From assembly GCA_050015395.1 (NCBI GenBank), contig JBEKBM010000025.1, positions 1-50,460 of the forward strand: a DNA stretch of 50,460 bases. Reading direction: 5' to 3'. A program made the position numbers and the translations under genes. Position 1 is the first letter of the stretch. Every line of letters begins with the position of its first letter. Shown here one piece after another: positions 4,889 through 50,460 of the stretch. The notes below the pieces were generated by a model. The model did not search any database. It was not told where the DNA came from and was given only the letters and a program-made list of their open reading frames with translations. The stretch is from Candidatus Bathyarchaeia archaeon. Lineage in GTDB: Archaea; Thermoproteota; Bathyarchaeia; Bathyarchaeales; Bathycorpusculaceae.

Positions 4889-5260
4889 CTAGACAAAGCA
4901 TACCGCCTTGAGTGCTCGCAAATCCTCATCACTAGTATATAGGTTAGCTTTCCAATGGCGTGCAGTAGCGTAAACGAGAGCATCACAAAAGTGCAGGCCA
5001 TATTCAAGACTGTAATCTGCAGCCTCAAGTGATATTGTTTGGTCGATATGAACAATAGTTGTCTGACTAAGTGCAGCAACCGCTAAAAGTGCATGCTTCT
5101 CGCCTCTGAGCTTCTTTACCTTCTTGTAAACCTCATAAAGAACCGCAACTGAGGTGACAATATCCTTAGGCTGACATGACTCAATTATCTGGTTGTACTG
5201 TGGTGCCTTAGGCCCATTTGTAAACCGCTCAATCCAACCGTAACTGTCGATACTAATCAA
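4889..5260 (-). CDS. vapC: VapC-family PIN-domain ribonuclease toxin (no intact antitoxin upstream)
   Basis: IDSYGW, LYEVYK, FCDALVYATA and TSDEDL contain the PIN acidic tetrad. Confidence 0.88.
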   Translation of the reverse strand: MISIDSYGWIERFTNGPKAPQYNQIIESCQPKDIVTSVAVLYEVYKKVKKLRGEKHALLAVAALSQTTIVHIDQTISLEAADYSLEYGLHFCDALVYATARHWKANLYTSDEDLRALKAVCFV

Positions 5261-5287: not shown

Positions 5288-5935
5288 TCACGCTGCATCT
5301 TGTATAGTGTCGACTGTGTCTTTGCCGCTTGCACGTTTAGATTCAGCACTTTCAGCTTCAGCTGCTTCAGTCTCTTCGCTCTCGCTATCTTCCTCGTCTT
5401 CAGGTTGCTGCAACTGCTTAGAAAGCTCACTAATCTTCTTGCTTAAATCACGCATAGTAGCCCTCTTAGCAATCTCCTTATTCAAATCCGCAAGCTTCCT
5501 TTTCAATGCGGCAAGTTCAGCATAGCTAGCGCTTGGAACTTGCTTAATCTGCTTTTCCAAGTTTTGTAGTTGATTCATCAAATCCTCGTATGTCCATTCT
5601 TTTGACTCCACTTCTTCCGACGCAGTATATGCATTGCTGATTACGCCTTGTCCCGGTTGTGTAGAAGCATCTTGCTGAGTGTTCTGTTCAGACAAAGGCT
5701 TCCCCTCTTCTTTGTTTTTCTGTTTGTCTTCAGGTTCTTGCAAGAACGCTGGGATTCCTTTACTTCGACTATTGTCGAGGGCTTGCTCCCAAGCACAAAA
5801 ACTCGGCCAGTCCTCAAGCAAACTTTTTGTCGGTGTTTTTTCTTCAGGTTTTTTGATTTTTTTATTCTCTTTGTCCATTAAATTTTTCACCTTATATTCA
5901 ATTACCAATAAACTGAGGCAAACGCTCAGCAACAA
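5288..5935 (-). CDS. Acidic coiled-coil protein, possibly a fused remnant of viral head scaffolding genes
   Basis: Heptad-like segment YEDLMNQLQNLEKQI...ISELSKQL with an acidic tail; lies directly downstream of the terminase remnant. Confidence 0.4.
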   Translation of the reverse strand: MLLSVCLSLLVIEYKVKNLMDKENKKIKKPEEKTPTKSLLEDWPSFCAWEQALDNSRSKGIPAFLQEPEDKQKNKEEGKPLSEQNTQQDASTQPGQGVISNAYTASEEVESKEWTYEDLMNQLQNLEKQIKQVPSASYAELAALKRKLADLNKEIAKRATMRDLSKKISELSKQLQQPEDEEDSESEETEAAEAESAESKRASGKDTVDTIQDAA

Positions 5936-7299: not shown

Positions 7300-7656
7300 T
7301 TGACAGGTATATTAGTAGACGAAAACGTGCCAAATAACGTCAGAGAGTGGCTCAAGAAGAAAGGATTCGACGTTGCTAACGTTTCGGAAACTAGCCTCAA
7401 AAGAGCCAAGGATTATGCGATAGCTGAGTACGCCGCAAAAAACAACATGACGATTTTAACTTTAGACGCAGACTTCGCCCAAATATATCACACGCTTAAG
7501 AAAGGCACGCTTTCAGTGATAGTCATAAAAGCTAACCCTGCCACAGCCTTTAACATCTTGGAAACGCTCATAACTGCCTACAAGAAAGTAGACCTTCACG
7601 AAGCGGAGAACAAACTGATTATAATCACAAAAAAGAGAATAAGAATAATTACTTAA
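7300..7656 (+). CDS. DUF5615 PIN-like toxin
   Basis: ILVDENVP, AKDYAIAEYA, ILTLDADF; directly downstream of DUF433. Confidence 0.88.
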   Translation: MTGILVDENVPNNVREWLKKKGFDVANVSETSLKRAKDYAIAEYAAKNNMTILTLDADFAQIYHTLKKGTLSVIVIKANPATAFNILETLITAYKKVDLHEAENKLIIITKKRIRIIT

Positions 7657-10537: not shown

Positions 10538-10828
10538 TTGGCTAAGGTTAGCATATATGTAGATGATGAAGTCTGGGCTAGCTTCAAAGCGCAGGTATTC
10601 CAAAAGCATGGAAACCTGAGAAAACTGAGTACCGAAGTTGAAATGCTTTTGCGGGCGGCAATAGTAAAAGACCAAGTAGTTTCAGCATTCGAAAAAATAG
10701 GCGTCACAGCCAAAGGAACAGCTTCTTCACAAGAAATTAAAGCTATAAGACCCAAACTCAGAGGACCCCCATCTGAGGAAATCCTAAGGCAAATGAGGAA
10801 CAAACGAATTGCTCAAACTCTATCTTGA
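10538..10828 (+). CDS. vapB: RHH-like VapB antitoxin
   Basis: KVSIYVDDEVWASFK...LSTEVEMLLR N-terminus and SEEILRQMR C-terminus; overlaps the PIN gene. Confidence 0.72.
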   Translation: MAKVSIYVDDEVWASFKAQVFQKHGNLRKLSTEVEMLLRAAIVKDQVVSAFEKIGVTAKGTASSQEIKAIRPKLRGPPSEEILRQMRNKRIAQTLS

Positions 10829-11318
10829 TACAAGTGTAATTCTGAAACGCTACATAACTGAACCAGGAACAGAAACAACAGACATAATCTTTGACAAAGC
10901 AGAAACAGGAGAACTAACAATAACGCTCTCCCTCTGGAACATAGGGGAAGCTTTGGGCGTTCTCGACGAAAAACGCAGAAAAGGCTCGCTAACAGAAAAA
11001 GAATTTGAGCAAACATTAAACCTCTTCGCTGATGAACTATCGAAACTCATGCGCCTAAAAACCCTTGAAATCATACCTGTCCAAACACCAATTCTCACCG
11101 ACACATGGAATCTAGTCATGAACTACCACATATACGAAGCTGACGCACTCCAAATAACAACATGCAGTTACGCCAATAACAATGCCTTATTAACCTGCGA
11201 CCAAAAACTCGCTCAAACAAGTAGAAAAGCAGGTCTAAAAACAATCCACGTTCCAAAAGATGAACAAGAACTCAAAACACTAATCCAACAAGCAAGTAAA
11301 CAAAAGCAAGATAAATAA
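10809..11318 (+). CDS. vapC: VapC-family PIN-domain toxin
   Basis: YLDTSVILKRY, IGEAL, ADALQI, LTCDQKL. Confidence 0.9.
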   Translation: MLKLYLDTSVILKRYITEPGTETTDIIFDKAETGELTITLSLWNIGEALGVLDEKRRKGSLTEKEFEQTLNLFADELSKLMRLKTLEIIPVQTPILTDTWNLVMNYHIYEADALQITTCSYANNNALLTCDQKLAQTSRKAGLKTIHVPKDEQELKTLIQQASKQKQDK

Positions 11319-21339: not shown

Positions 21340-22314
21340 ATGAAAGTTTCACAAAAAACAGCCATTTTGCTACTCATATCCATCCTGCTGCTACTATTAC
21401 CAGTAGCCATCACCCACGCTCAAACAACAACCAATGACGCGCAAAACTCACTGCATAACGCCTACAACGCCATCGTCAGCGCATACAATGCAGGCGTAGA
21501 CACAAGCAAACTAATAATACAACTCAACCAAGCCATAAACCTAACATCCCAAGCTCAAGCCATAATCAGTTCCAATCCACAACAAGCACAATCGCTAAAT
21601 TCCCAAGCCCAAGCTATAGCCCAGAACGTTACCACGCAAGCAGCCCAAGCCAAACAATCAAGTAGCCTGATGATGGCGCCAGTCACGGCTGCTGTGGCAG
21701 CTGCTGCACTAATCGTCGGTGGGTGCCTCGTTTACTTATATGGACCTAAATTTTTCTGGAAGACATGGCTTAAGCTTAGAAAAAACAATCGGGTAAGAGC
21801 CAAAAACTCACCAACCAAAACCAAAGGTCTCATAGTCACCTGGGAACAAGTCTGCGCAGTAATCTTAGGCGTAACAGTGATAATCGCTTTGGTTGCCACT
21901 GTACCATTCTTTCTCCCAAAAAGCACATCCGAAAAATTCTCAGAACTCGGCATCCTGGGGCCAAACATGCAACTAGGCGATTACCCAACAGCAACTGTTG
22001 CGGGCCAACCTGTTAACCTCTATGTTTACGTCGGTAACCAAATGGGCATACCAATGTACTACGGCGTTATGATTAAACTTGGAGACAACAACACAATCGT
22101 AGACCCCGCCTCAGTAACACCCATCCAACAATTCACAAGCGTTGTACCAGACAATGGAACGTGGACTTTTCCAGTAAGCGTAACCTTAACGCAACCCGGC
22201 TTAAACCAAAGAATCATCTTTGAACTCTGGATATACAACCAAACCCTAAACCAAATGCAGTACAACCAGAGGTGGGGGCAGGTCTGGCTTAACGTTACAG
22301 CTCCAGCCAGCTAA
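21340..22314 (+). CDS. Membrane protein with DUF1616-type C-terminal extracellular domain
   Basis: Signal peptide, helical domain, two TMs, EKFSELGILGP...DYP; divergent from the MoxR operon. Confidence 0.75.
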   Translation: MKVSQKTAILLLISILLLLLPVAITHAQTTTNDAQNSLHNAYNAIVSAYNAGVDTSKLIIQLNQAINLTSQAQAIISSNPQQAQSLNSQAQAIAQNVTTQAAQAKQSSSLMMAPVTAAVAAAALIVGGCLVYLYGPKFFWKTWLKLRKNNRVRAKNSPTKTKGLIVTWEQVCAVILGVTVIIALVATVPFFLPKSTSEKFSELGILGPNMQLGDYPTATVAGQPVNLYVYVGNQMGIPMYYGVMIKLGDNNTIVDPASVTPIQQFTSVVPDNGTWTFPVSVTLTQPGLNQRIIFELWIYNQTLNQMQYNQRWGQVWLNVTAPAS

Positions 22315-32592: not shown

Positions 32593-32696
32593 TCAAAAGT
32601 GCTAATACAACAGCTGGAACCGCACTCAGTTTTTTCAGTTGTCTCGCTCTGCGAACTCCCTTGTGAAGTTTATCAACAGCATAACAATGCATCACC

Positions 32697-33101
32697 TTGC
32701 CACCTTGCATCAGCCAAAACGGGCTTGCACTCTCAGCAGGCGCTACCGCGATTCTTGTTTTACTTATTCTCTATGCTGTATACTTGGATAGAAAAGAGAA
32801 ACTTGCTCTTTTAAACCTCTACCGAAAACTTCCATCACAAGACCAACTCATAATGAAAGCAGTCACAAACGCCGAAAACATGCACAACCCATCAACCCAA
32901 GCTATAACTCTTGGATTCCAAAAACTCTCCCAAACACCCACTTCTGAAACTTGGATCGCACAAAAACTAGACGAAGCAGAAAACACCGGCTTAATCAAGA
33001 AAACACTCACAAACAAAGATGACACCCCCGCTCTCGCATGGAAAAATCAAATGCCTGAAAAAGGTTCTGTTAACTTCATAGGCGATGTTTTTCCCTGTTA
33101 A
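32697..33101 (+). pseudogene. Probable C-terminal fragment of a larger membrane protein (TM plus winged-helix-like tail)
   Basis: No clear N-terminus; one TM, then LYRKLPSQDQLIMKAV...KLDEAENTGLI. Confidence 0.4.
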
Positions 33102-33972: not shown

Positions 33973-34899
33973 TGTGTTGAATAACTTAAGTTCTACTTCT
34001 GCATAGAACGTTTGAATTAGATTTAGACTTTGTTGCAGCCTGGTCTAGAGAACTAAAAGCGATGAACGAACGCAAAGAAGGCGCCAGATACCGCTACCCT
34101 GAATCATTCGTAAAGCTGCTGGCAGTCGTACACGCCTACGTTTTGCCGTATCGGCAGCTCGAAGGCTTCATGCGAGCCTTAAGCCAGCACGTTGACGGTC
34201 TCAAAGCACTCGACTACACCACCATCTGGTGGCGAGTTGCCAAAATGAAGGTTGATATGGTCTCTTCCGTAGAGTTAGACAAGGATGTCACCATCGCAGT
34301 GGATTCCACCGGCATCAAAGTGTCCAACAGAGGCGCGAGTGGATCCGCAAAAATGGAAAGTCAAACGCGGCTTCATAAAAGTGCACATAGCAGTAGATAT
34401 CAAGACCAAACAGATACTGGCTATTGAAGTGACGCGCGAGGACGTTGGAGACGGAAGAATGCTTGGGAGGCTGGTGAAGGATTCTGCGGGAGTAGCGGAT
34501 TTGAAGCGGGTCATTGGCGATGGCGCGTATGATTCCAAAAACAATTTTCGGATGCTCAGTGAAAGGGGCATTGATCCTTTGATAAGGGTTAGAAAGAATG
34601 CTTCTTTGAAGGGTGGCGGATGTATGCCGCGCAAGTTTGCTGTGGTTTTGCAGCTTGGCAATGTTGAGTGGCGCAAAGAGGGGGGTTATGGTTATCGGTG
34701 GATGGCTGAGTCAGCGTTCTCATGCATAAAGCGAATCTTCGGAGAACACATCACTTCAGTAAAGTGGAACAACATAGTTAACGAACTGCTCCTCAAGGCG
34801 TCAATTTACAATTTGTTCATGTCAATGAATCCACAGTAAGCAACAGCGAAACTGTGAAGAGAAACCTGATTTAAAAAGAACCATCAGTCATTCGGCACA
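33973..34899 (+). mobile_element. IS5-family insertion sequence remnant
   Basis: Imperfect terminal inverted repeats TGTGTTGAATAACT (33973) and AGTCATTCGGCACA (34886) enclose a DDE transposase pseudogene. Confidence 0.8.
34062..34839 (+). pseudogene. IS5-family DDE transposase, 5'-truncated and frameshifted near 34335
   Basis: LPYRQLEG, AVDSTGIK in one frame; KVHIAVD, GDGAYDS, YGYRWMAESAFSCIKRIFG in another. Confidence 0.9.
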
Positions 34900-39364: not shown

Positions 39365-40432
39365 TTAATTGATTATTCCTGTTGCCTTTGCTGTTTTCTC
39401 GCACGCTTCGAAATTAAGATTTAACTTTTGAAGGATTGTGTAGCGTTCAGGCCTTATTTTCGCTGCTACCTCCAACGCTTTAACCACATCAACGTCTTTA
39501 ACGCCTAATTCGCTAGCAGTTGTTGGTGCACCTATCTGCTTGAGCGTATTTCTTATTCTTTGCCAGTTTGCTCTGTAAAGATAAGCGGTCAATATTGAGC
39601 CTACACCGCATTGTTCGCCGTGCATGGCATGGTGCGAATTAAACATGTCCAGGGCGTGGCTAAAGAGGTGTTCTGAACCGCTGCATGGGCGGCTGCTTCC
39701 AGCGATGCTCATCGCGACGCCGCAGCTTATCAAAGCCTCAAGAAGTACATGTAGTCCTTCATCTTTGCGGGAGACGATTAACTCTGCGTTTTCCATAACC
39801 AGTTTTGCACTCATTAAGGCTAGACTGGCTGCGTACTCGCCGTAATACTCGTTTTGTTCCAGATGTGCCAGTTTCCAATCTTTAACTGCTGTAATTTTGG
39901 CGATGACGTCTCCGCAGCCGCTTATTACAAAACGCCAGGGTGCTTGGGCAATAACTTCTGTGTCAGCTATTATCGCCAGGGGCGCTTGTGCCAGTACTGA
40001 GTAGGGCTTGTCTGAACCTTTAATTGAAGCTAAGGGGCTTGCGATGCCGTCGTGAGAAACAGTTGTGGGCACGCTGATGAAGGGGATGTTTTGGCTTCCT
40101 GAACTTATTTTGGCCGCGTCAATTATTGTTCCGCCGCCCACACCGAAAAGCACTTGCGGCTTTAACTCTTTTATTTGGCTTTCAATATCTAACACGTCTC
40201 TTGTAGTCATGGTCTTAACAAGAAGAAAATCAACCGACAAACCTGATTCCATAAGAAAATCAGAAACCGCTTTTCCAGCTACATCATAACATTTTGAGTC
40301 CGACATTACCAACGCTTTCCCCCTAAGTCCTAACCGTCTTGCCACTTCAGGAACCCGTTGCAGTGTTCCTTTTCCAACGATGACTTCGCGAGGAAGCTGC
40401 ATGTAATGGTAATTTAGTGTCAAACTAACCAC
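39365..40432 (-). CDS. egsA: NAD(P)-dependent glycerol-1-phosphate dehydrogenase
   Basis: QLPREVIVG, GVGGGTIIDAAK, SVPTTVSHDGIAS, SRPCSGSEHLFSHALD, HGEQCG, RPERYTIL. Confidence 0.95.
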   Translation of the reverse strand: MVSLTLNYHYMQLPREVIVGKGTLQRVPEVARRLGLRGKALVMSDSKCYDVAGKAVSDFLMESGLSVDFLLVKTMTTRDVLDIESQIKELKPQVLFGVGGGTIIDAAKISSGSQNIPFISVPTTVSHDGIASPLASIKGSDKPYSVLAQAPLAIIADTEVIAQAPWRFVISGCGDVIAKITAVKDWKLAHLEQNEYYGEYAASLALMSAKLVMENAELIVSRKDEGLHVLLEALISCGVAMSIAGSSRPCSGSEHLFSHALDMFNSHHAMHGEQCGVGSILTAYLYRANWQRIRNTLKQIGAPTTASELGVKDVDVVKALEVAAKIRPERYTILQKLNLNFEACEKTAKATGIIN

Positions 40433-40993: not shown

Positions 40994-41092
40994 CTGCAAA
41001 GCTTCTTTGAGTACTCACTGATTTTTTGAAAATAAGCTGAGACCCGCGTAGAAGTAGGAAACAATAAAAATCCGTAAAACAAAATTCTATTT

Positions 41093-41720: not shown

Positions 41721-41941
41721 TTATTTCGTCTCCAAAAAACCTAACGTATTCATGCCAAACTGATTTTTTAAACATATGTGACTAGCCTACCACATACACA
41801 ATCTAATGAGCGCCCTATACCCAAGAGAAACGCAAAGAGCTCAATCAACAAAACTTATCAGGTGGTAAAGTTTCTTATCCACGACAAGAAGCCACGAAGC
41901 AGCTAGTAAAGGCAAATCAAGCGCCATTTTAAATGCGGTTT

Positions 41942-42019
41942 GGGCGAGTAGCTCAGTACGGATAGAGCACCAGCCTCCTAAGTTGGGGGTCGAGGGTTCA
42001 AATCCCTCCCCGCCCGCCA
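41942..42019 (+). tRNA. tRNA-Arg (anticodon CCT), CCA encoded
   Basis: GGGCGAG acceptor; D arm GCTC/GAGC; anticodon arm CCAGC-CTCCTAA-GTTGG; T arm GAGGG-TTCAAAT-CCCTC; CCCGCCC-G-CCA. Confidence 0.96.
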
Positions 42020-42048
42020 CAACGTACTAACTTATGAGGAAATCGACC

Positions 42049-43032
42049 CTAAGGCGACGTGTCCCCCTTCACAATCGGACGACCATCCCTGTATGAACAC
42101 TGAAGCCCATACTTCTTCACGCACTCTAAACAGAGAATGGGATCGCAGAGGGTCGTGCTCAAGTATTTTTCGCCGCCATCAGGAGCAATGGCAACAATCA
42201 TGCCTTTCTCGATTTCTCTTGCTTTGGCTGCCGCAATGTGGAAAATGGCTCCTGAACTTGGGCCTACAAAAATTCCTTCCTGCAAGGTGAGAAGTCGGGA
42301 AGCTTCCTCAGCGTCCTTAGGGTTCACGTAATAGATTTCGTCGACCAACTTTGGGTTCCAGATTGCTGGCACGTACTGGGTCTTCAGGTCCTTCAAGCCT
42401 TGAATCGTTGTGCCAGGTTCAGGCTGAATCCCGATAACCTTCACGGCGGGGTTGTGTTCCTTGAGCCGTTTCGAGACACCCATTAACGTGCCTGTGGTTC
42501 CGATGCCAGCCACAAAGTGAGTGACCCGCCCCTTCGTATCTCGCCATATCTCCTCACCCGTCGTTTGGTAATGTGCCAAGACATTTGCTTCGTTTGCAAA
42601 CTGGTTGGGTATGAAGTACTTGTCTGGGTTACGTTTGACTATTTCATGCGCTAAGTCTTCAGCTCCATCCATTCCCTTGGACCCATCGCTGAGCAGAATC
42701 TTAGCCCCCAACGAAATTAGGATCTGGCGCCTCTCCAACGTCATGGTTTCAGGCATAACCAGCACCAAGTCGTACCTCTTGGCGCGGCAGACCAAAGCCA
42801 ACCCGATGCCCGTGTTTCCACTCGTGGGTTCAATCACCGTTTTGCCGCCTGTCAACTGCCCCGATTTTTCAGCCTCTTCAATCATGTATTTGGCGATTCG
42901 ATCCTTAACTGACCCGCCTGGGTTGCATTTCTCCAACTTGACGTACATCTGAACGTTAGGGTTAGGATTCAAGCGTCTTATCTCCACCATAGGAGTGTTG
43001 CCGATAAGTTCGAGCACATTTTTCGCATTCAT
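42049..43032 (-). CDS. Cysteine synthase (CysK/CysM family, PLP-dependent)
   Basis: IGNTPMV, KLEKCNPGGSVKDR, EPTSGNTGIGLA, NQFAN, GIGTTGT, GPSSGA; ATG 43032. Confidence 0.93.
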   Translation of the reverse strand: MNAKNVLELIGNTPMVEIRRLNPNPNVQMYVKLEKCNPGGSVKDRIAKYMIEEAEKSGQLTGGKTVIEPTSGNTGIGLALVCRAKRYDLVLVMPETMTLERRQILISLGAKILLSDGSKGMDGAEDLAHEIVKRNPDKYFIPNQFANEANVLAHYQTTGEEIWRDTKGRVTHFVAGIGTTGTLMGVSKRLKEHNPAVKVIGIQPEPGTTIQGLKDLKTQYVPAIWNPKLVDEIYYVNPKDAEEASRLLTLQEGIFVGPSSGAIFHIAAAKAREIEKGMIVAIAPDGGEKYLSTTLCDPILCLECVKKYGLQCSYRDGRPIVKGDTSP

Positions 43033-43144
43033 CTTTAAGCACCGCAAAAGACTGATAATAATTAGTTCGCTACAGTACTATAAATTATATGCGGACAAAC
43101 TCTTCTTTCAACGGAGTACGTGAGCATCGACATTGCTAAACGAA

Positions 43145-43176
43145 GGTCAAGGGTTCAAATCCCTCCCCGCCCGCCA
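43145..43176 (+). repeat. tRNA-Arg 3'-end copy 1 (att-like)
   Basis: GGTCAAGGGTTCAAATCCCTCCCCGCCCGCCA, 31/32 identical to the tRNA end. Confidence 0.95.
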
Positions 43177-43280
43177 TGTTTTGTGATAGTGCGCTTGGTC
43201 TGAAAGTTTTCAATTGAAAGTAACTCTCGTAAGAAGGCTTTAGTAATACTTTGTCATTCACACTACTATTTGGTGATAAA

Positions 43281-43493
43281 ATGAAATTCGGTGTAGTGGT
43301 TGAAAAAGATGAAGATGGCTATTATGTTGCTTCTGTTCCAGAGTTACCTGGCTGCCACACCCAAGCCAAAACACTGGACGAAGTTATGAGAAGAATCAAG
43401 GAAGCCATCCAGGCTTGTTTGGAAGTTGAAGGCCCGAAAGGCCGTGAACACACCGAACTCGTTGGAGTTCAGTTCGTAGAGGTTCAAGCTTAA
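43281..43493 (+). CDS. hicB: HicB-family antitoxin (short form)
   Basis: VVVEKDEDGYYVASVPELPGCHTQAKTLDE...IKEAI; GGTGA RBS. Confidence 0.92.
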   Translation: MKFGVVVEKDEDGYYVASVPELPGCHTQAKTLDEVMRRIKEAIQACLEVEGPKGREHTELVGVQFVEVQA

Positions 43494-43724
43494 TGAGCTT
43501 GAAGTCGCAATCAGCCAAAAAGATAATTAGGGTTCTTTCAAAGTTAGGTTTTTAAAATTGTGAGAAAACAAGGCAGTCATGTTGTACTAAAGCATGCGGA
43601 TGGAAGACTTACAGTTGTTCCAGTCCATGCAGGTGAAGAAATAGGCAGAGGGTTACTTAACAAGATTATCAAAGATACGGGACTGCCTAAAGAGGAATTC
43701 ATCAAACTACTAGAAAACGAATGA
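43493..43724 (+). pseudogene. hicA: HicA toxin interrupted by one extra T (GGT TTT TAA)
   Basis: Removing one T at 43549..43553 gives MSLKSQSAKKIIRVLSKLGFKIVRKQGSHVVLKHADGRLTVVPVHAGEEIGRGLLNKIIKDTGLPKEEFIKLLENE*. Confidence 0.9.
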
Positions 43725-43800
43725 TTCCGATTTTTATAGTGCGTACTCTAAACGTACCTTAGGTTGCCAAATTCTGGGATAACCAAATAATTGTATAGGG

Positions 43801-43853
43801 GCACCAGCCTCCTAAGTTGGGGGTCGAGGGTTCAAATCCCTCCCCGCCCGCCA
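43801..43853 (+). repeat. tRNA-Arg 3'-end copy 2 (att-like), 53 bp exact including anticodon arm
   Basis: GCACCAGCCTCCTAAGTTGGGGGTCGAGGGTTCAAATCCCTCCCCGCCCGCCA. Confidence 0.97.
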
Positions 43854-44164
43854 TAGCGTGCGGCTAAAAATTTTTAAAAAAATATTTTTCGCTAGATTCT
43901 ATTACACTGTACGCTGTGTGGGCTGCCCAAACTAATGTATCCAAACACACCTTGTTCAATTTTGCTTGCCCTTGTATACATTCACCTCACTTATTTCGTT
44001 TGCGAAGCTCTCGGAAAAAAAACATAGTGAATTGATTATTGAATAAGGAGTTTTGATAGTTTTTTACCTTAGCAAAATCAAGAGCTGTATTTTCTTTTCC
44101 AAAAGGTTAAAAAAAAACATAACGTTATAATTAATTGTCATAATTTCTGGACATATGAAGAAAT

Positions 44165-46102
44165 ATGGTGCAAATAAAAAGAATTGCTACAATTCCCGTA
44201 ATTGTTTTAGTACTTTTAATAACAATTCTGTACGCCTTTAACATCAGCACGGCCGTTTTTAATCCGCCCTATTTGGAGTTAGCCCTCCAAATTCTTTTCG
44301 TTTTGGTAACAGGTCTGGCTGTTGCTGTCGTATCCGCGATAAGTTATCTGCGTTCTGGGTCGTTCAATGTTCTTTTGCTAGGCAGCTCCCTTCTCGTAAG
44401 CGGGCTTGCTTTAACAATTTCTTCTTTAGCGTTAGACCCAATTGTTCCGCCAACTCTCTCGCCAGATCAAGCAGTTACAATAGGCAACATTGGACTCTTA
44501 GTCGCCTCAATTATTATGCTCATAGGCGCCATAACAACTTGGTCTGGAAGAGGAGCAAATTCACAAGCCAACCGCAAAATCGTCTTAGCAACAACGTACT
44601 TTGCATTTGTCCTCTTGGTCATTGCTATAGCCGTAGCGGCTGCATCTAATCTGACTCCACCTTTTCTTACCTCGACAGGTCCAACCGCAGAGCGCTTAAC
44701 TGTTTTAGCGCTCCAGATCGTCATCTATTTTGCAAGTTGCTTGCTGTTTAGTTTGATGTATTTCAAATCAAAAAAGCCTACTTTGTATTGGTATTCTTTA
44801 GCGCTTGGATTGCTTGTTGTTTCTTTGATTGCTGCGCTTTTCGTAATTAATATAGGCGATGTCATGAATTGGATAGAAAGGGTTGGATTGTATCTTTCTG
44901 GATTGTATTTCTTAGCAGCCCTTTTGAGTCTTGAAACAAGGGAACAAGAAGGTGTTGGTTTTTATGAAAGTTGGGCAGAAGCGTTTAGGTCTGACCGCAA
45001 GCAAATCGCTACCTTCTTCTCCAAAATGATTGACGGATTCGCATATTGCAAAATCATAACTGACAAAGGGGGAAAACCAATCGATTATGTTTACCTTGAT
45101 GTTAATGATGCTTTTGAGAAAATAAGCGGGGTCAAAAAAGAGAGTATTTTGAGCAAGAGAGAAACTGAAGTATTTAATGAAATAGAGAGCGATCCAAGTT
45201 GGATAAGTATCGATGGTCGTGTCGCTCTTACGGGCGAACCAGTCATTTTTGAGAAGTATTCGCTGGCGATGAAGAAGTGGCTTCACGTTTCTGTTTACTG
45301 CCCACAAAAAGGGTATTTTGTCTCAATCTTAGAGGATATAACTGAGCGCAAGAAAGCTGAAGAGAAGCTTGAGGAATATCGAGAGAACTTGGAGAAGCTT
45401 GTTGAAGAACGTACTAAGCAGCTTAAAGATTTTGAGCGTTTAGCCACTATAGGCGCAACTGCTGGTATGGTTGGGCATGACATTCGTAATCCGTTGCAGG
45501 CTATTACTGGTGACGTGTTTTTGGCAAAGACAGATTTGGCTTCGATTCCCGAGAGCGAAGAGAAAAATAACGTTCAAGAAAGTCTAGTGGAAATTGAGAA
45601 GAACGTTTCTTACATTAACAAGATTGTGACAGATATTCAAGACTTCGCAAAGCCTATATCGCCAAAACTTGAAGAAACCGACCTTGAACAGATTATCCAC
45701 CTTGTCTTAGCTAACCTCAAAATCCCCGGAAACGTAGCCGTTAACCATTTCATCGGAAAAGGTTTCCCAAAACTCAAAGTCGACCAATTATACCTCCAAA
45801 GAATATTGACCAATCTAGCCAACAATGCGATCCAAGCTATGCCGAAAGGAGGAAAATTAACCATAAACGCGGTCCAAAAAGGCAAAAAAGCGGTTATCAG
45901 CGTGGAGGACACAGGCGAAGGCATACCGGAAAACGTGAAAAGCAAACTGTTCACACCGCTTGTGACGACGAAAGCTATGGGTCACGGCTTTGGCTTAGCC
46001 GCAGTTAAGAGGTTCACGGAAGGAATGGGCGGAACGGTAACGTTTGAAAGTGAGGTTGGGAAAGGAACAAAATTCATAATCGAACTTCCGGTTAGTTTGT
46101 AA
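44165..46102 (+). CDS. Membrane sensor histidine kinase (multi-TM, PAS, HisKA, HATPase)
   Basis: About 8 TMs; VNDAFE PAS; GHDIRNPL, NLANNAIQA, EDTGEGI, GHGFGL. Confidence 0.93.
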   Translation: MVQIKRIATIPVIVLVLLITILYAFNISTAVFNPPYLELALQILFVLVTGLAVAVVSAISYLRSGSFNVLLLGSSLLVSGLALTISSLALDPIVPPTLSPDQAVTIGNIGLLVASIIMLIGAITTWSGRGANSQANRKIVLATTYFAFVLLVIAIAVAAASNLTPPFLTSTGPTAERLTVLALQIVIYFASCLLFSLMYFKSKKPTLYWYSLALGLLVVSLIAALFVINIGDVMNWIERVGLYLSGLYFLAALLSLETREQEGVGFYESWAEAFRSDRKQIATFFSKMIDGFAYCKIITDKGGKPIDYVYLDVNDAFEKISGVKKESILSKRETEVFNEIESDPSWISIDGRVALTGEPVIFEKYSLAMKKWLHVSVYCPQKGYFVSILEDITERKKAEEKLEEYRENLEKLVEERTKQLKDFERLATIGATAGMVGHDIRNPLQAITGDVFLAKTDLASIPESEEKNNVQESLVEIEKNVSYINKIVTDIQDFAKPISPKLEETDLEQIIHLVLANLKIPGNVAVNHFIGKGFPKLKVDQLYLQRILTNLANNAIQAMPKGGKLTINAVQKGKKAVISVEDTGEGIPENVKSKLFTPLVTTKAMGHGFGLAAVKRFTEGMGGTVTFESEVGKGTKFIIELPVSL

Positions 46103-46287
46103 GAAAAAAGGTTAATTTCGCGTCTGTAATCTTTCAAGTGAAGCTTGGTTCTAAACTCTGCTTGGTGGCTTTTTTTGTTGTAGTTTCGTTTTCCAATTTG
46201 GGTTGGGATCCATGTTTGCGCGAATGCTAGACTGAATATCGAAATAACAAGCGAAAACGGATAGGCAGATATAGACCTTCACCCAAC

Positions 46288-47295
46288 TTGGAAATCGCAA
46301 TGATAGAATCCGTTTTGCTCTTGATATTCAGTATTCTTGCTGTTTTTGTTTCGGCTTTGTTGTACGTTAATTCCATCGAGTTTCTGGGTTACAGATACAG
46401 TATAGGCGGTTCTTTTGTTGGAGCGATTTTGTCTCCGCTTTTCACTTCGCTTCCTGAACTCATCATTCTGTTGATCGCTGTTTTTGAGTTTGGAGGAGCC
46501 AACGGCTCCGCGATAGGAGTAGGCACAATATTTGGCCAGCCTTTTATGGCCTCAAGTCTTTCATACGGGTTGGTCGGGGTTTTAGTTCTCTTAAGTTTCA
46601 TCCTAAAGAAGCGAAACCACAGTTACATGGAAGTAAGCCGCACATTGTCGATACCGTTCATTTTCGTCACGGTCCTGTTTCCATTGACTCTTATACCATC
46701 CTTCTTCTCGTCAAGGCTGGTGCGTTTTCTTTTTGGGTTAATTTTTCTAGGCGCCTATCTTATTTACCTAGCCATAATGTACAAGAGACGGTCGCTTGAA
46801 GCCATAGGTGAAGCGGAGCAGCCTTACTTTTGCCGAGTTTGCCGAAACAGAGAGCTTGCCGGTTTTGTCCAGTTGATTGTTTCAGTCGTTATCCTTTATT
46901 TTGGAGCAAGCCAGTTGGTGGCTGCCGTAAATCAGATAGCTGTCAGCTTTGGAGTTAGCGTGTTGGGATTGGCGATAATTGTGATACCCGCGGCCACAGC
47001 GGTTCCTGAGACCGTAAGCGCTTTGATTTGGGGTTTTAGGGGGAAAGACACGTTAAGCATAGGGTCACTGGTTGGCGAGAAAGTTCTTTATTCCACATTG
47101 TACCCTGCGATTGGGCTGTTTATTACTTCATGGACGTTAAACATTCAAGTTTATCTGAGCGTTCTAGCCACTTCAGTAGTCTCGCTGTTGATGCTTTTCT
47201 TTGTCTACCGAAAGAGGATACCATGGTACGGTCTGATTTTCGGATTGGCATTCTTTGCGGCTTATGTGCTGCTGACGTTTTGGTTGCATGTTTGA
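46288..47295 (+). CDS. Ca2+/cation antiporter (CaCA, Na/Ca exchanger family)
   Basis: Two alpha repeats FTSLPEL and ATAVPET; about 10 TMs. Confidence 0.85.
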   Translation: MEIAMIESVLLLIFSILAVFVSALLYVNSIEFLGYRYSIGGSFVGAILSPLFTSLPELIILLIAVFEFGGANGSAIGVGTIFGQPFMASSLSYGLVGVLVLLSFILKKRNHSYMEVSRTLSIPFIFVTVLFPLTLIPSFFSSRLVRFLFGLIFLGAYLIYLAIMYKRRSLEAIGEAEQPYFCRVCRNRELAGFVQLIVSVVILYFGASQLVAAVNQIAVSFGVSVLGLAIIVIPAATAVPETVSALIWGFRGKDTLSIGSLVGEKVLYSTLYPAIGLFITSWTLNIQVYLSVLATSVVSLLMLFFVYRKRIPWYGLIFGLAFFAAYVLLTFWLHV

Positions 47296-47666
47296 CTCGA
47301 AAACATGACTTCATTAAAAACTTTTAGAACCATTCTCATTGAGTCAATCATGTTTTTGTCGATAATTACTTTCACTCAACCAGAAGAGCAATAGGCTTTC
47401 CACAAGCATTACAGTTTATACTAATTCTTGTAACCTTTTTGTCTGCAGCGAAGCTTTTCACCATTTTTTTGGTTCTTGTTCTATCCCGTGCAGCTTCTTC
47501 ATCCGATAGAAATCCTGGGCGGGTACGACGCTTGTGCAGATGTTTTTTCCTCAAAATTATATTGCCGAAACCTCGTTAAAGTGTTTGTATCGAACGAGCG
47601 TATATTCGTTTCTGACTTTGGCAATGGAAAAGAGGGAATTTGCGGGTGAAATCTCCACGTTGGTTG

Positions 47667-47692
47667 GGGTTCAAATCCCTCCCCGCTCGCCA
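47667..47692 (+). repeat. tRNA-Arg 3'-end copy 3 (att-like)
   Basis: GGGTTCAAATCCCTCCCCGCTCGCCA, 25/26 identical. Confidence 0.9.
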
Positions 47693-47797
47693 CGGATCAC
47701 TTCGGATAACAATTATAACAAAAATAACAAGAAAATAGCATTGCTAGAAAAAACGTTATTTCACAGAACCCAATTCAAAAGAGTCAGTTGCCTTAGG

Positions 47798-48136
47798 CTA
47801 AGGCTTTTTCTTCAAGGTTTCTTCAATATCCAATCTCAAATCAGCATTTTCAACATTCGGCAAAAGCTGCAGAAGACGACCTCTAGTGCTCGTCTCTTCT
47901 CCGCCACCGAGATTAACCCAGTACCGCCCTTCTTTAAGCCAAGCCAACATAACACGAGCTTCAGCCTCCACGTTTTCTGTTTTAGCGGCTGATGGGAAAA
48001 CAAGCCCAAACTCAACAGCGGACGCCATGAACTTTTCAAAAGCTGCAGTCACAGTGTAACCGTTCTTAGACGCTAACTCCTTGAAACCAGCGTAAAGCTG
48101 AGGGTTAAACCTAAACGCCTTAAACACCTTAGGCAC
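47798..48136 (-). CDS. Small RHH-like DNA-binding protein (GTG start)
   Basis: MPKVFKAFRFNPQLYAGFKELASKNGYTVTAAFEKFM fits a beta-helix-helix pattern; AGGAG RBS upstream of GTG 48136. Confidence 0.65.
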   Translation of the reverse strand: MPKVFKAFRFNPQLYAGFKELASKNGYTVTAAFEKFMASAVEFGLVFPSAAKTENVEAEARVMLAWLKEGRYWVNLGGGEETSTRGRLLQLLPNVENADLRLDIEETLKKKP

Positions 48137-48146
48137 ACATCTCTCC

Positions 48147-48222
48147 TGTATCAACAAATTGTATTGACAAAATGTATAAACTTTCACCCTACCGGTAGGT
48201 AGCTGAGAGAGCACACACAGAC
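48147..48222. promoter_or_regulatory. 13-bp-period repeats overlapping the promoter of the RHH-like gene; third member of the 6719/10326 family
   Basis: TGTATCAACAAAT/TGTATTGACAAAA/TGTATAAAC, then CCCTACCGGTAGGTAGCTGAGAGAGCACACACAGAC. Confidence 0.75.
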
Positions 48223-48432
48223 CGTCAGAGTCGATCTTTGTCTTTTTGGCTTAAAACAAATGATTTTTTAGAACTGATCAGGCTTTTACTTATTATCTTG
48301 AAATACATAAAAAATAACGTTTGCCTTGCCCTCGATGCAGCTTGCCTTTTACAAGATAGATATTTAGACCTGCATAAGTTAAAAAATAAAAAAAGGAACC
48401 AAAGAGGTTAAGAACTTGGTTTCTTAGGTTTC

Positions 48433-49584
48433 TTAAAAGAAACTTTTTATGGGTGAATCATCGTCAACGGCTGCAGATTTTATCTCTTGAATTTTCGTTT
48501 TTGTTAAAGCTTTAATATTGTTGAAGTCTGACATTTCACCGTAGCTTACCAGCGTTATGGCTGTGCCTTCTTCTCCTTTGCGGGCGGTTCTTCCTATGCG
48601 ATGGAAATATATTAGCGCCTCCATGGGCACGTCATAGTTGATTATGTGCGTTATGCCCTCGATGTCTAAGCCTCTTGCCGCAACATCCGTTGCTACGAGC
48701 AGGCTAAGTCTGTCCGAGCGGAAATCGTTGATTGCGCGGTCTCTTTGCGCTTGGGTAAAACCAGCGTGCAATGCTTGTACTCGGAACCCTTTCCTGTACA
48801 GCTGCTCTGAAAGTCTGCTTGTTTCCCTGCGCGTTCTGCAGAAAACTATGGCTTTACTCACCCGTTCGTTGCGGATTATATCGCAGAGAGCATCAAACTT
48901 GCCATGCTGATTAACGATTGTGTAGAACTGCTTCATCTGCGTTAACGCAATCTCATCTTTGCTAACAAGGATTTTCAGCGGGTTCTTCATGTACTTATTG
49001 CAGACTTTCATAACTGACTGGTCAATTGTCGCTGAAAAAAGACTAGTTTGCCTATCATACGGCGTTTTTGAGAGGATAAATTCGATGTCTTCTATAAAGC
49101 CCATGTCAAGCATTCTGTCGGCTTCATCAAGAACCACAATTTTAACAGACCCAAGGTTTAAAACTCGCCTTTCCATGAGATCGATTAATCTGCCAGGTGT
49201 ACCGACAACAATTTGGACACCGCTTGATAGCGCGTGTATTTGCTTGTTGATTGATTCTCCACCATAAACAGCCAAAACCTTGATTCTGGCGTATTTCGAA
49301 AACCAAGCCATGTGTTCGGCTACTTGCACGGCTAACTCGCGTGTTGGCACTAAAATCAAGCCTTGAACACCGCGGATTTCACGGTTTAACCGTTGAACCA
49401 TGGGAATGCCAAAAGCAGCTGTTTTTCCTGTTCCAGTTTGTGCTTGCCCGATAACATCTTTGCCTTCGAGCAAGGGTATTATTGCTTGGGCTTGAATTGG
49501 AAAAAGACTCTCAAACCCGAGTTCTTCTATACTTCTAAGGATTTCCCTAGTTAAAGGTAAGTCCTTGAACGATTGAATTTGCAT
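48433..49584 (-). CDS. DEAD-box RNA helicase (DeaD/CshA-like core)
   Basis: AQTGTGKT, PTRELA, TPGRL, DEAD, SAT, ARGLD, HRIGRTAR. Confidence 0.96.
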   Translation of the reverse strand: MQIQSFKDLPLTREILRSIEELGFESLFPIQAQAIIPLLEGKDVIGQAQTGTGKTAAFGIPMVQRLNREIRGVQGLILVPTRELAVQVAEHMAWFSKYARIKVLAVYGGESINKQIHALSSGVQIVVGTPGRLIDLMERRVLNLGSVKIVVLDEADRMLDMGFIEDIEFILSKTPYDRQTSLFSATIDQSVMKVCNKYMKNPLKILVSKDEIALTQMKQFYTIVNQHGKFDALCDIIRNERVSKAIVFCRTRRETSRLSEQLYRKGFRVQALHAGFTQAQRDRAINDFRSDRLSLLVATDVAARGLDIEGITHIINYDVPMEALIYFHRIGRTARKGEEGTAITLVSYGEMSDFNNIKALTKTKIQEIKSAAVDDDSPIKSFF

Positions 49585-50333: not shown

Positions 50334-50460
50334 TGTCATGTCAACTTTCCAACGTTACACTCATAGAGGTCGGCTGGGAATGCTTTTACTCCTCTGTGAA
50401 AGCGTGAATGGTTAAACCAGTCTCTGTAATCGCCTATTTGGCCGTTGAGCCATTGAGGAA
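50334..50460 (-). mobile_element. End of a probable IS481-family element (transposase C-terminus), cut by the window edge
   Basis: Minus frame 50458..50336 reads PQWLNGQIGDYRDWFNHSRFHRGVKAFPADLYECNVGKLT*, an rve-like YNxxRxHxG..P motif; the terminus begins TGT (TGTCATGTCAACTTTCCAACGTTACA). Confidence 0.6.

Follow-up and report, generated by a model that had tools for sequence, protein, structure and literature searches.

Integrase-less modules bounded by tRNA 3'-end copies form a tandem array behind a tRNA-Arg(CCT) gene of a Bathyarchaeia archaeon

How do small gene units that carry no recombinase of their own come to be stacked, one behind another, downstream of a tRNA gene? The question is raised by a 50,460-nt stretch of DNA from a Candidatus Bathyarchaeia archaeon (GenBank assembly GCA_050015395.1, contig JBEKBM010000025.1), hereafter the window, in which an intact tRNA-Arg(CCT) gene is followed by three such units, with a copy of the tRNA 3' end closing each of them. 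The Bathyarchaeia, archaea that abound in sediments and peat and are almost uncultured, acquire genes in ways that are poorly known. The window is the entire contig C25 of a metagenome-assembled genome (MAG) of 42 contigs and 2.59 Mb with 3.3% contamination, whose gene content is archaeal and whose DNA was found in peat and wetland sequencing runs, 22 of which contain most of its sampled words. Our analyses suggest that the locus is probably an accretion array at an attachment (att) site in the 3' half of the tRNA gene, in which three integrase-less, att-flanked modules were inserted and reshuffled by crossover in the T-loop, with the integrase provided in trans.

The tRNA-Arg(CCT) gene (41942-42019, + strand) has its CCA encoded and forms the proximal, attL-like end of the array. 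It was identified by ARAGORN, which found no other tRNA gene in the window, and by Rfam (RF00005, 62.3 bits), which has no further tRNA match between positions 41000 and 49000. A first-pass annotation, made without database searches, had noticed that the 3' end of this gene recurs in direct orientation at 43145, 43801 and 47667, and our comparison bears this out. Copy 1 (43145-43176, +) spans tRNA positions 47-78 with 31 of its 32 nt identical; weaker tRNA-like similarity (68%) reaches back from it to 43124, and the same copy with the same upstream flank is present in the related genomes G019 and G130. Copy 2 (43801-43853, +) spans positions 26-78 and is identical at all 53 nt. Copy 3 (47667-47692, +) spans positions 53-78 with 25 of 26 nt identical, the sole mismatch being the allele of a second tRNA-Arg(CCT) gene on contig C16, and is followed by a flank (CGGAT..) that resembles the sequence after the tRNA in the relative G003; it is probably the original chromosomal tRNA 3' end. 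The 26-nt word of the T-arm and acceptor occurs four times in the window when up to two mismatches are allowed, and of 100 dinucleotide-preserving shuffles not one contained any match. Direct repeats of the tRNA tail bound every inserted segment, all of them on the strand of the tRNA, and each unit sits between two tail copies whose identity ranges from 25/26 to 53/53. The idea that the tail copies are overlooked or intron-containing tRNA genes was rejected, as none was recognised by Rfam or by ARAGORN with introns allowed.

Repeats of this kind may mislead an assembler, and the tRNA tails could in principle have caused a chimeric join of strain variants. The source is a fragmented MAG with some contamination, short-read unitigs break at the 53-nt repeats, and other contigs carry the second tRNA-Arg(CCT) gene plus further fragments. 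However, assembled contigs from three sequencing runs cover 41991-43830 and 43825-47837 with no differences and cross copies 1 and 3, usual reads are longer than the two 53-nt repeats, and both the cysteine-synthase unit and the hicBA unit described below were assembled independently in other genomes, each together with both of its att copies. Because independent contigs span the locus without differences there is no sign of misassembly, and we regard an artefact, a possibility that the first-pass annotation had itself raised, as highly improbable.

The three units are compact, being 65-89% coding with less than 100 nt between genes and att copies. Unit 1 (42020-43144; 1125 bp, 89% coding) has a GC content of 49.2% versus 41.5% for the contig and holds a single gene, a cysteine synthase of the CysK/M subfamily (42049-43047, - strand; Pfam PALP 7.3e-72; TIGR01136 cysKM 365 bits, above the cut-off). 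Unit 2 (43177-43800; 624 bp, 65% coding) holds hicB (43251-43493; Pfam HicB_lk_antitox 7e-10) and hicA (43560-43724; Pfam HicA_toxin 8.8e-13), both domains of the toxin-antitoxin pair being present. Unit 3 is 82% coding, and its cargo (43854-47625) consists of a MASE3/PAS sensor histidine kinase (44165-46102, +) and a Ca/Na antiporter (Na_Ca_ex; 46288-47295, +), both recognised by Pfam and NCBIfam, as well as a 60-aa open reading frame (ORF; 47372-47554, -). Gene orientation in the array is mixed, as the cysteine synthase gene and the 60-aa ORF lie antisense to the tRNA. These domain searches agree with the gene content that had been assigned to the three intervals from their translations.

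No integration or transfer gene was found in the three units when all of their ORFs were searched against Pfam and NCBIfam. None of the six PF00589-like matches in the genome is on the window contig, and tblastn searches of 41900-48450 with five integrases returned nothing better than E=0.1, so that the earlier description of the units as free of integrases stands at the level of remnants as well. There is also no trace in the window units of a split integrase, in which the gene is parted into an N-terminal piece, int(N), and a C-terminal piece, int(C): no int(C) follows any of the tail copies, and, in a circular form of the unit, the ORF at 47624 that spans copy 3 would terminate just past the att sequence.

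We next consider the same locus in related genomes, using as anchors a glycerol-1-phosphate-dehydrogenase-like gene on the left (Fe-ADH_2; 39365-40432, -; Pfam PF13685 7.7e-39; matched in 38 of 41 relatives) and a DEAD-box RNA helicase gene on the right (48433-49584, -; Pfam DEAD 1.8e-51; matched in 29 of 41 relatives). The distance between the anchors is ~3.5 kb for G003 and 8.0 kb for the window, and rises to ~10 kb for G013, 24.6 kb for G016 and 30.5 kb for G019. G003 represents the empty state, its tRNA being followed directly by the flank with the helicase gene 0.8 kb away. At the other extreme, G019 has four integrase-less units of ~2.1, 16.2, 1.1 and 9.4 kb with att copies between them. 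The locus is thus hypervariable within the genus, and the comparison of cassette number and order that the first-pass annotation had proposed shows that both differ between species. The arrays of the relatives also include units of 9-16 kb and one integrase-bearing element, whose integrase is the only one among the 72 ORFs at the loci of G003, G013, G016 and G019.

That single integrase belongs to G016. A 295-aa C-terminal part of an integrase begins directly after the tRNA copy (PF00589, 5.5e-15; phrog_1, 2.4e-16), and an N-terminal integrase stub lies 5.4 kb downstream, in the same frame through an att copy of 30-31 nt. This is an SSV-type split ('suicidal') integrase element at the att site of the window, and it answers the suggestion that integrases be sought next to the same att core.

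The tRNA gene itself also varies among these relatives. A tRNA-Arg gene is present at the same locus in G019, and the tRNA-Arg(CCT) genes of G003 and G016 are complete, each with a 30-nt non-canonical intron between positions 9 and 10 that ARAGORN missed; the intron allele is seen about 39 nt upstream of the tRNA-Arg body in G003 (locus L011) and G016 (L013). In G013 (L012, 6860-7004) the tRNA-Arg gene has a 60-nt insertion in the D-arm region that holds a piece resembling a variable loop and T-arm, as if left by a recombination event. For Caldiarchaeum it has been proposed, in the account available (PMC3293823), that tRNA genes were disrupted by integrating elements, and the intron- and insertion-bearing alleles of G003, G016 and G013 fit that proposal as stated there. 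As a separate observation, the units of G019 (L015 and L016 joined) are bounded by three copies of a compound att variant (5778-5818, 22031-22068 and 32669-32709), in which a 16-nt insert (…GGGCTCAAACC…) parts the 5' half of the T-arm from the 3' part of the acceptor; a degenerate form related to it flanks the cysteine-synthase unit in G130.

That the intervals of the window are units in their own right is indicated by their recurrence elsewhere. Of 120 genomes from the genus, at least 10 (G019, G130, G094, G078, G095, G016, G097, G075, G123 and G021) contain the cysteine-synthase unit from boundary to boundary, with an identity of 83-96%. To its left is the intact tRNA in the window, 18 kb of other DNA in G019, and a junction of a motif-bearing type, described below, in both G078 and G095. 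The array of G078 has it as the last unit, 130 nt from the helicase flank, and its left junction there breaks in the T-loop. Since the same unit is first here and last in G078, insertion next to the tRNA does not suffice on its own, and recombination at internal copies, or relocation, is required. The hicBA unit recurs in G130 at 97% identity with unrelated surroundings on both sides; the left limit of the homology falls exactly at TTCAAATCCC and the right limit at GGGTTCAAA, within the two T-loops, as crossover in the T-loop predicts. The first-pass annotation had taken the differing repeat lengths as a sign of more than one crossover point or enzyme, which they may or may not be; all of the junctions that could be resolved break in the T-loop, including one at the 53-nt copy. 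More diverged hicBA copies (78-80%) were found between two junctions of tRNA-Ala type in both G003 and G046; in G098 such a copy precedes a ~70-nt tRNA-Arg fragment.

The third unit behaves differently and looks composite. Its antiporter gene occurs alone, without a T-arm copy in the vicinity, in G013 (contig C14) and G073 (C26) at 88-90% identity, and the 120 genomes yielded no close full-length counterpart of its kinase. Contigs of one further sequencing run (X23), ~97% identical over hicBA and the kinase, have an att copy less than 700 nt from the helicase gene and the kinase-antiporter block ~4 kb upstream of the 5' end of a tRNA-Arg; the joints of these contigs are uncertain, and they hint at a different arrangement in a related population.

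Taken together, the units are discrete and not random deletion remnants, because boundaries are kept in at least 10 genomes, neighbours differ and breaks are exact to the T-loop. In addition, no relative that we examined has the window units inside a larger integrase-bearing island, an arrangement that the first-pass annotation had named among those that would refute its interpretation.

How might such units have accumulated? In the mechanism that we favour, the 3' half of the tRNA-Arg(CCT) gene would serve as the attachment site of tyrosine-integrase elements, making the locus an integration hot spot. Circular DNAs with a tRNA-like att sequence would recombine with the tRNA or with any earlier tail copy, the crossover falling in the T-loop (TTCAAAT), and every such event would add one direct copy of the tRNA 3' end, thereby building a tandem array. 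The units would be immobile alone, and an integrase of matching specificity, acting in trans, would insert, excise or reshuffle them; an element like the split-integrase element of G016, which occupies the same att site, is a candidate source. That an integrase acts in trans on the window array is plausible because of this element and because trans excision of elements of that kind is documented in the review material available (PMC8371274). Of the proposals made by the first-pass annotation, the integrase in trans is accordingly retained as plausible, with the reservation that no matching intact integrase was found in the source genome, and of the integron-like stacking of integrase-free units we retain the discrete, att-bounded and shuffled units, but not a dedicated integron-like platform.

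Several observations weigh against this mechanism. The source genome has four intact integrase-like genes, all of them outside this locus, and the G016 type is present in it as remnants only. For none of the three units did the assembled contigs, which were the only material searched, show a circular form, an empty-site polymorphism or an excision junction; a joint in run X8 (42020>43828) has one side of just 25 letters, inside the repeat, and is hence uninformative on excision. An empty site for the hicBA insertion of G130 was not found, the right flank of that insertion being unique and the left a patchwork of small modules. For the cysteine-synthase unit, the att flanks are degenerate or undetected in G094, G016, G097, G075 and G123, and the unit's divergence from relatives (89-96% identity) is about that of the flanking core genes (87-95%), so that it may be vertically inherited. 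Furthermore, hicA is frameshifted by a 1-nt insertion in a T-run near 43549-43553 when compared with seven homologous copies, its first ~20 codons lying in another frame, from 43494. Contigs from three runs, possibly of the source population itself, have the same base, and the G003 copy of hicA is frameshifted as well. At least the hicBA unit is decaying.

Frameshifted hicA genes and decayed att flanks fit fossils as well as they fit mobile units, and the same findings, along with the core-like divergence of the cysteine-synthase unit, speak for an alternative in which the intervals are scars: the deletion residue of integrase-bearing islands, vertically inherited, with nothing moving them now. 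Toxin-antitoxin pairs are typically the last survivors of decayed elements, and several short C-terminal integrase remnants and truncated integrases in the source genome indicate that integrase decay is common there. However, the window units are compact, without pseudogene debris or an integrase remnant, and small units keep exact boundaries in many genomes. Insertion at a tRNA followed by deletion does not by itself explain how the cysteine-synthase unit came to be first here and last in G078, and the unrelated flanks and T-loop-precise breaks of the G130 hicBA unit are likewise unexpected of residues. The island that should have preceded the scars was not seen around the window units in any relative examined, and the one integrase among the 72 ORFs at the related loci belongs to a different element. 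We therefore consider fossil scars somewhat unlikely as an account of the array, and continue to favour accretion with an integrase in trans.

A further feature of the array is a conserved motif of ~50 nt at its third junction. It occupies 47626-47666 (+), where an A-run, GGG, a spacer, GCGGGTGAAATCTCCAC at 47642-47658 and ~8 nt follow one another and abut att copy 3. The general layout is an A-run, GGG(G), 3-4 nt, GCGGGTGA-N-ATCTCCAC, 8-10 nt and the 5' half of the T-arm. Only this one of the three junctions in the window has the motif, and the source genome has seven motif-bearing tail copies, which are joined to different tRNA tails. A 15-nt core of the motif, with one mismatch allowed, was found in 74 of 120 genomes of the genus, with ~220 matches versus ~15 for a reversed control (counted by hand), and the copies are often in same-strand tandem arrays, 0.1-5 kb apart, at many tRNAs. 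After an obvious false match on contig C2 was dropped from 51 collected copies, 50 were aligned, and at least 81 further copies were obtained from species-representative genomes; the fixed-spacing pattern is present in all. The representative genomes hold at least 123 motif stretches, and among the 80 listed 73 are labelled Bathyarchaeota or Bathyarchaeia, six bacterial (four on contigs <10 kb and two on large contigs) and one archaeon. One of the two matches on large bacterial contigs is due to chance, judging by its context.

Beyond the T-loop, copies of the motif continue as the tail of an Arg, Leu, Cys, Ala or other tRNA, or as a second conserved arm, TGCAACGGCTGCCCAA..GCCAGGGGGTGTAGCTTCTAT. 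This right arm was found at 15 sites in 11 of the 120 genomes; the motif was recognised by pattern at nine of them and by eye, in degenerate form, at four, and was absent from two. In one array (L050) the interior junctions join the motif to the non-tRNA arm and the last junction joins it to a tRNA tail. At another locus (L143; CAYFXZ010000009.1, 55311-56056) two motif-plus-tail copies are only 113 nt apart, in effect an empty unit, and the short spacers after them resemble each other.

The cargo of motif-bearing arrays is diverse and includes beta-propeller surface proteins, kinases, transposases, a hydrogenase and TBP/TFB-like genes. No protein was common to the motif-bearing units in tblastx comparisons, and blastp of the adjacent uncharacterised ORFs gave one unrelated pair. 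Adjacent ORFs in the other arrays, as read from maps, are on the same strand in ~15 cases versus ~10 on the opposite strand. A search of 46 loci with motifs or arrays (316 kb) recovered no integrase-like sequence apart from the G016 element and two remnants of ~28 aa. Small units in the hundreds, at many tRNAs, carry this Bathyarchaeia-specific junction motif, and no recombinase is nearby.

Several explanations of the motif were tried and rejected. It is not an RNA gene, as there was no Rfam match and RNAalifold gave no consensus fold of the 50 copies on either strand; for 13 of the 15 extended copies, the two without the motif having been dropped, RNAalifold yielded only -5.4 and -0.3 kcal. 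The motif and tail do not represent the 3' halves of split tRNAs, since one leader precedes different tRNAs, partner copies are missing and full genes exist. The start codons that follow the motif led us to consider it as the promoter, ribosome-binding site and first codons of a split integrase; this was also rejected, as the frames differ between copies and no int(C) follows the att. Two integrases of the genus, a 470-aa C4-type (82 of 120 genomes) and a 429-aa C8-type (19 of 120), neither co-occur with the motif nor lie near it. No canonical XerA was found in the source genome, where the best match scored 57 bits against a cut-off of 220 bits. Viral contigs gave 13 exact matches to the motif, all without its flanking features and hence due to chance by context, and the reciprocal junction, in which a tRNA 5' part would be joined to the conserved right arm, was not present at any of the 15 right-arm sites.

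Could the motif belong to a dedicated system analogous to integrons? Under such a system, small cassettes would end in a site of ~50-105 nt (A-run, GGGG, GCGGGTGA-N-ATCTCCAC and the T-arm 5' half), a recombinase of the Bathyarchaeia would stack them at T-loops, and unit 3 of the window would be one such cassette. This is consistent with the abutment of the motif on att copy 3 and on six other tRNA-tail copies in the source genome, with its presence in 74 of 120 genomes, often in same-strand tandem arrays, and with the fixed distance to the T-arm of a site that is joined to various tRNA tails or to the second arm. The unrelated cargo, the near-complete lack of integrase sequences at the 46 loci and the Bathyarchaeia labels of 73 of the 80 matches listed point in the same direction, and the order of the L050 junctions, with the arm inside and the tRNA tail last, is as serial insertion at one site predicts. 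Against it, no recombinase is linked to the motif, whether C4-type, C8-type or canonical XerA, and the motif with its flanks is absent from the viral contigs. It marks one of the three window junctions only, gene orientation in the arrays is mixed, and the reciprocal junction was not seen. Moreover, the motif could have another role, for instance as a protein-binding or transcription signal. On balance we hold it to be quite unlikely that such a dedicated system built unit 3.

A related proposal, that Bathyarchaeia possess a cassette system docking at tRNA T-loops, in which integrase-less cassettes with a ~50-105-nt site and sometimes the conserved right arm are exchanged by a dedicated recombinase, and of which the window array is one example, appears to us doubtful. 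It would, if true, constitute a functional analogue of the integron based on a different site and a different enzyme, and a dedicated enzyme, if there is one, would mean a second, independent invention of an integron-like cassette platform. In either case the motif offers a searchable handle for cataloguing units in metagenomes and for finding the enzyme that acts on them.

Arrangements resembling the window array were also observed elsewhere in the source genome, where tail copies follow tRNA-Thr(GGT), Ser, Pro, Arg(TCG), Ala and Leu genes. On the 17-kb contig C39 (12136-15457; L010), tRNA-Arg(CCT) tails of 47 and 25 nt bracket a single 994-aa Eco57I/MmeI-type (type IIG) restriction-modification gene; the second tail carries the junction motif, genes for ApeA-HEPN, MazE and HicA are just upstream, and no full tRNA was found on this contig. 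The second complete tRNA-Arg(CCT) gene (C16:47461-47538; L009) is one base off that of the window and has a similar TATA-like box upstream. A tRNA-Leu(TAA) gene that ARAGORN had missed lies 2 kb upstream of it, and 2.35 kb after the tRNA-Leu(TAA) gene there is a motif-type Leu tail copy, the intervening unit containing radical-SAM and NYN genes. Some tail 'fragments' elsewhere in the genome are real tRNAs that had been missed, tRNA-Leu(TAA) on C16 and C3 being examples. On C3 (66759-68185), tRNA-Thr(GGT) is followed by partial middle/3' copies at 67399 and 68159, which leaves intervals of 0.6 and 0.76 kb and makes this a further array of very short units. Short remnants that match no more than the last 30-40 residues of the G016-type integrase are found at C20:22855-22947, C26:24361-24481, C26:5592-5699 and C2:39335-39433, and further C-terminal remnants of this type were found at two of the loci collected (L055:3952-4032 and L035:1925-2011).

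The surroundings of the array are a mixture of conserved and accessory DNA. The genes upstream of it are conserved, of housekeeping type and common to the relatives. Between the array and the helicase lies a 138-aa gene (47798-48214, -) that is multicopy, with paralogous DNA on contigs C19 (81%), C1 (78%) and C7 (72-73%), and that has no match in Pfam, NCBIfam or PHROG; its best Atlas score, 0.88, is below a meaningful level. The segment 47693-48372 has no counterpart at the locus in G003, G013, G016 or G019. A ~73-nt sequence upstream of the 138-aa gene (48147-48219) is 78-85% identical to sequences on at least 15 other contigs of the genome and may be a small mobile or regulatory repeat. The last 127 bases of the window (50334-50460) match the end of C18 exactly and the ends of C1 and C12 at 96-97% identity, which looks like a k-mer-sized overlap of the assembly graph at a repeat, with the contig end at the repeat boundary. 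Elsewhere on the contig, at 4889-5260 (-), 7300-7656, 10809-11318 and 34285-34839, there are several toxin-like genes, of PIN-domain and DUF5615 type, along with a fragment of a DDE transposase, so that accessory and mobile genes are plentiful on the contig overall.

If the array arose as we propose, single metabolic, signalling and defence genes would travel in these archaea in very small modules with an att site on either side, which carry no recombinase of their own and come to be stacked and reshuffled at tRNA genes. A search of the literature on Bathyarchaeia integrases, tRNAs and mobile elements, on archaeal integrons and on tRNA introns and integration, with subscription journals outside its scope, yielded neither integrase-less cassette arrays delimited by tRNA tails nor the motif.

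The comparison with integrons is the one that the compact units most readily invite. Classical integrons have been reported in archaeal MAGs, mostly as integrase-less clusters of attC sites (PMC9668308), and the window array resembles integrons and clusters of attC sites lacking integron-integrases (CALINs), as that survey presents them, in its small units, mostly of one or two genes, with a recurring site between them, in that many arrays have no adjacent integrase and in that mobility in trans is possible. Unlike integrons, however, the window has no IntI, no attI and no attC-type imperfect hairpin, its genes are of mixed orientation without a common promoter, and its recurring site is a tRNA tail, joined at one junction to a linear motif that is specific to Bathyarchaeia. 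The word tRNA does not occur in the main text of the survey (PMC9668308). The arrays fail every integron-defining feature that could be tested.

Another parallel is provided by the split integrases. In SSV-type suicidal elements, the attP site is inside the integrase gene, so that integration yields int(N) and int(C), and according to the review (PMC8371274) such elements need a complete integrase in trans for excision, related integrases can excise them in trans, and gene capture may follow loss or splitting of the integrase. The G016 element shares this organisation, whereas neither an int(N) nor an int(C) remnant is present in the window units. As to its domain, the integrase of G016 matches PF00589 and not PF16795, the domain assigned to suicidal families in that review, which treats suicidal integrases of hyperthermophilic archaea (PMC8371274); the DNA of the present MAG comes from peat and wetland runs. 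Split integrases are thereby shown outside the hyperthermophiles of their first description.

Gene capture at archaeal tRNA genes was reportedly described by She and co-workers in 2001-2004. Arrays are known to arise when tyrosine-recombinase elements, archaeal or bacterial, use a single integration site repeatedly (PMC6563490), and the window agrees with tandem accretion and gene capture, as outlined in that source, in that tRNA 3' repeats bound the segments, one site is re-used, the region is variable and the integrase can be lost. It departs from them in that its units are tiny (0.6-3.8 kb), compact and without an integrase remnant, and in that two of them recur elsewhere as units, which implies recombination at internal copies as well. 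Nor is there an integrase within or beside the window units, unlike in tRNA-targeted integrase islands. Bacterial cis-mobilizable elements (CIMEs), which keep attL and attR but have lost their integration genes (PMC6323972), share with the window units an att site on both sides, the lack of integration and transfer genes, and the occurrence of an integrase-bearing element at the same site, here in G016. A feature of CIMEs themselves, in the account given there (PMC6323972), is that they form tandems with integrase-bearing relatives and are moved by the integrase of another element. CIMEs are bacterial (Firmicutes) and defined by integrative and conjugative elements, whereas the window units are in an archaeal host without conjugation genes, and their parentage and mobilisation are putative, being judged from sequence, with the unit-wise redistribution between genomes as indirect support for mobilisation. 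By analogy, then, the window units appear most like bacterial CIMEs or archaeal gene capture with an integrase in trans, and they would extend both ideas to a mesophilic archaeal lineage.

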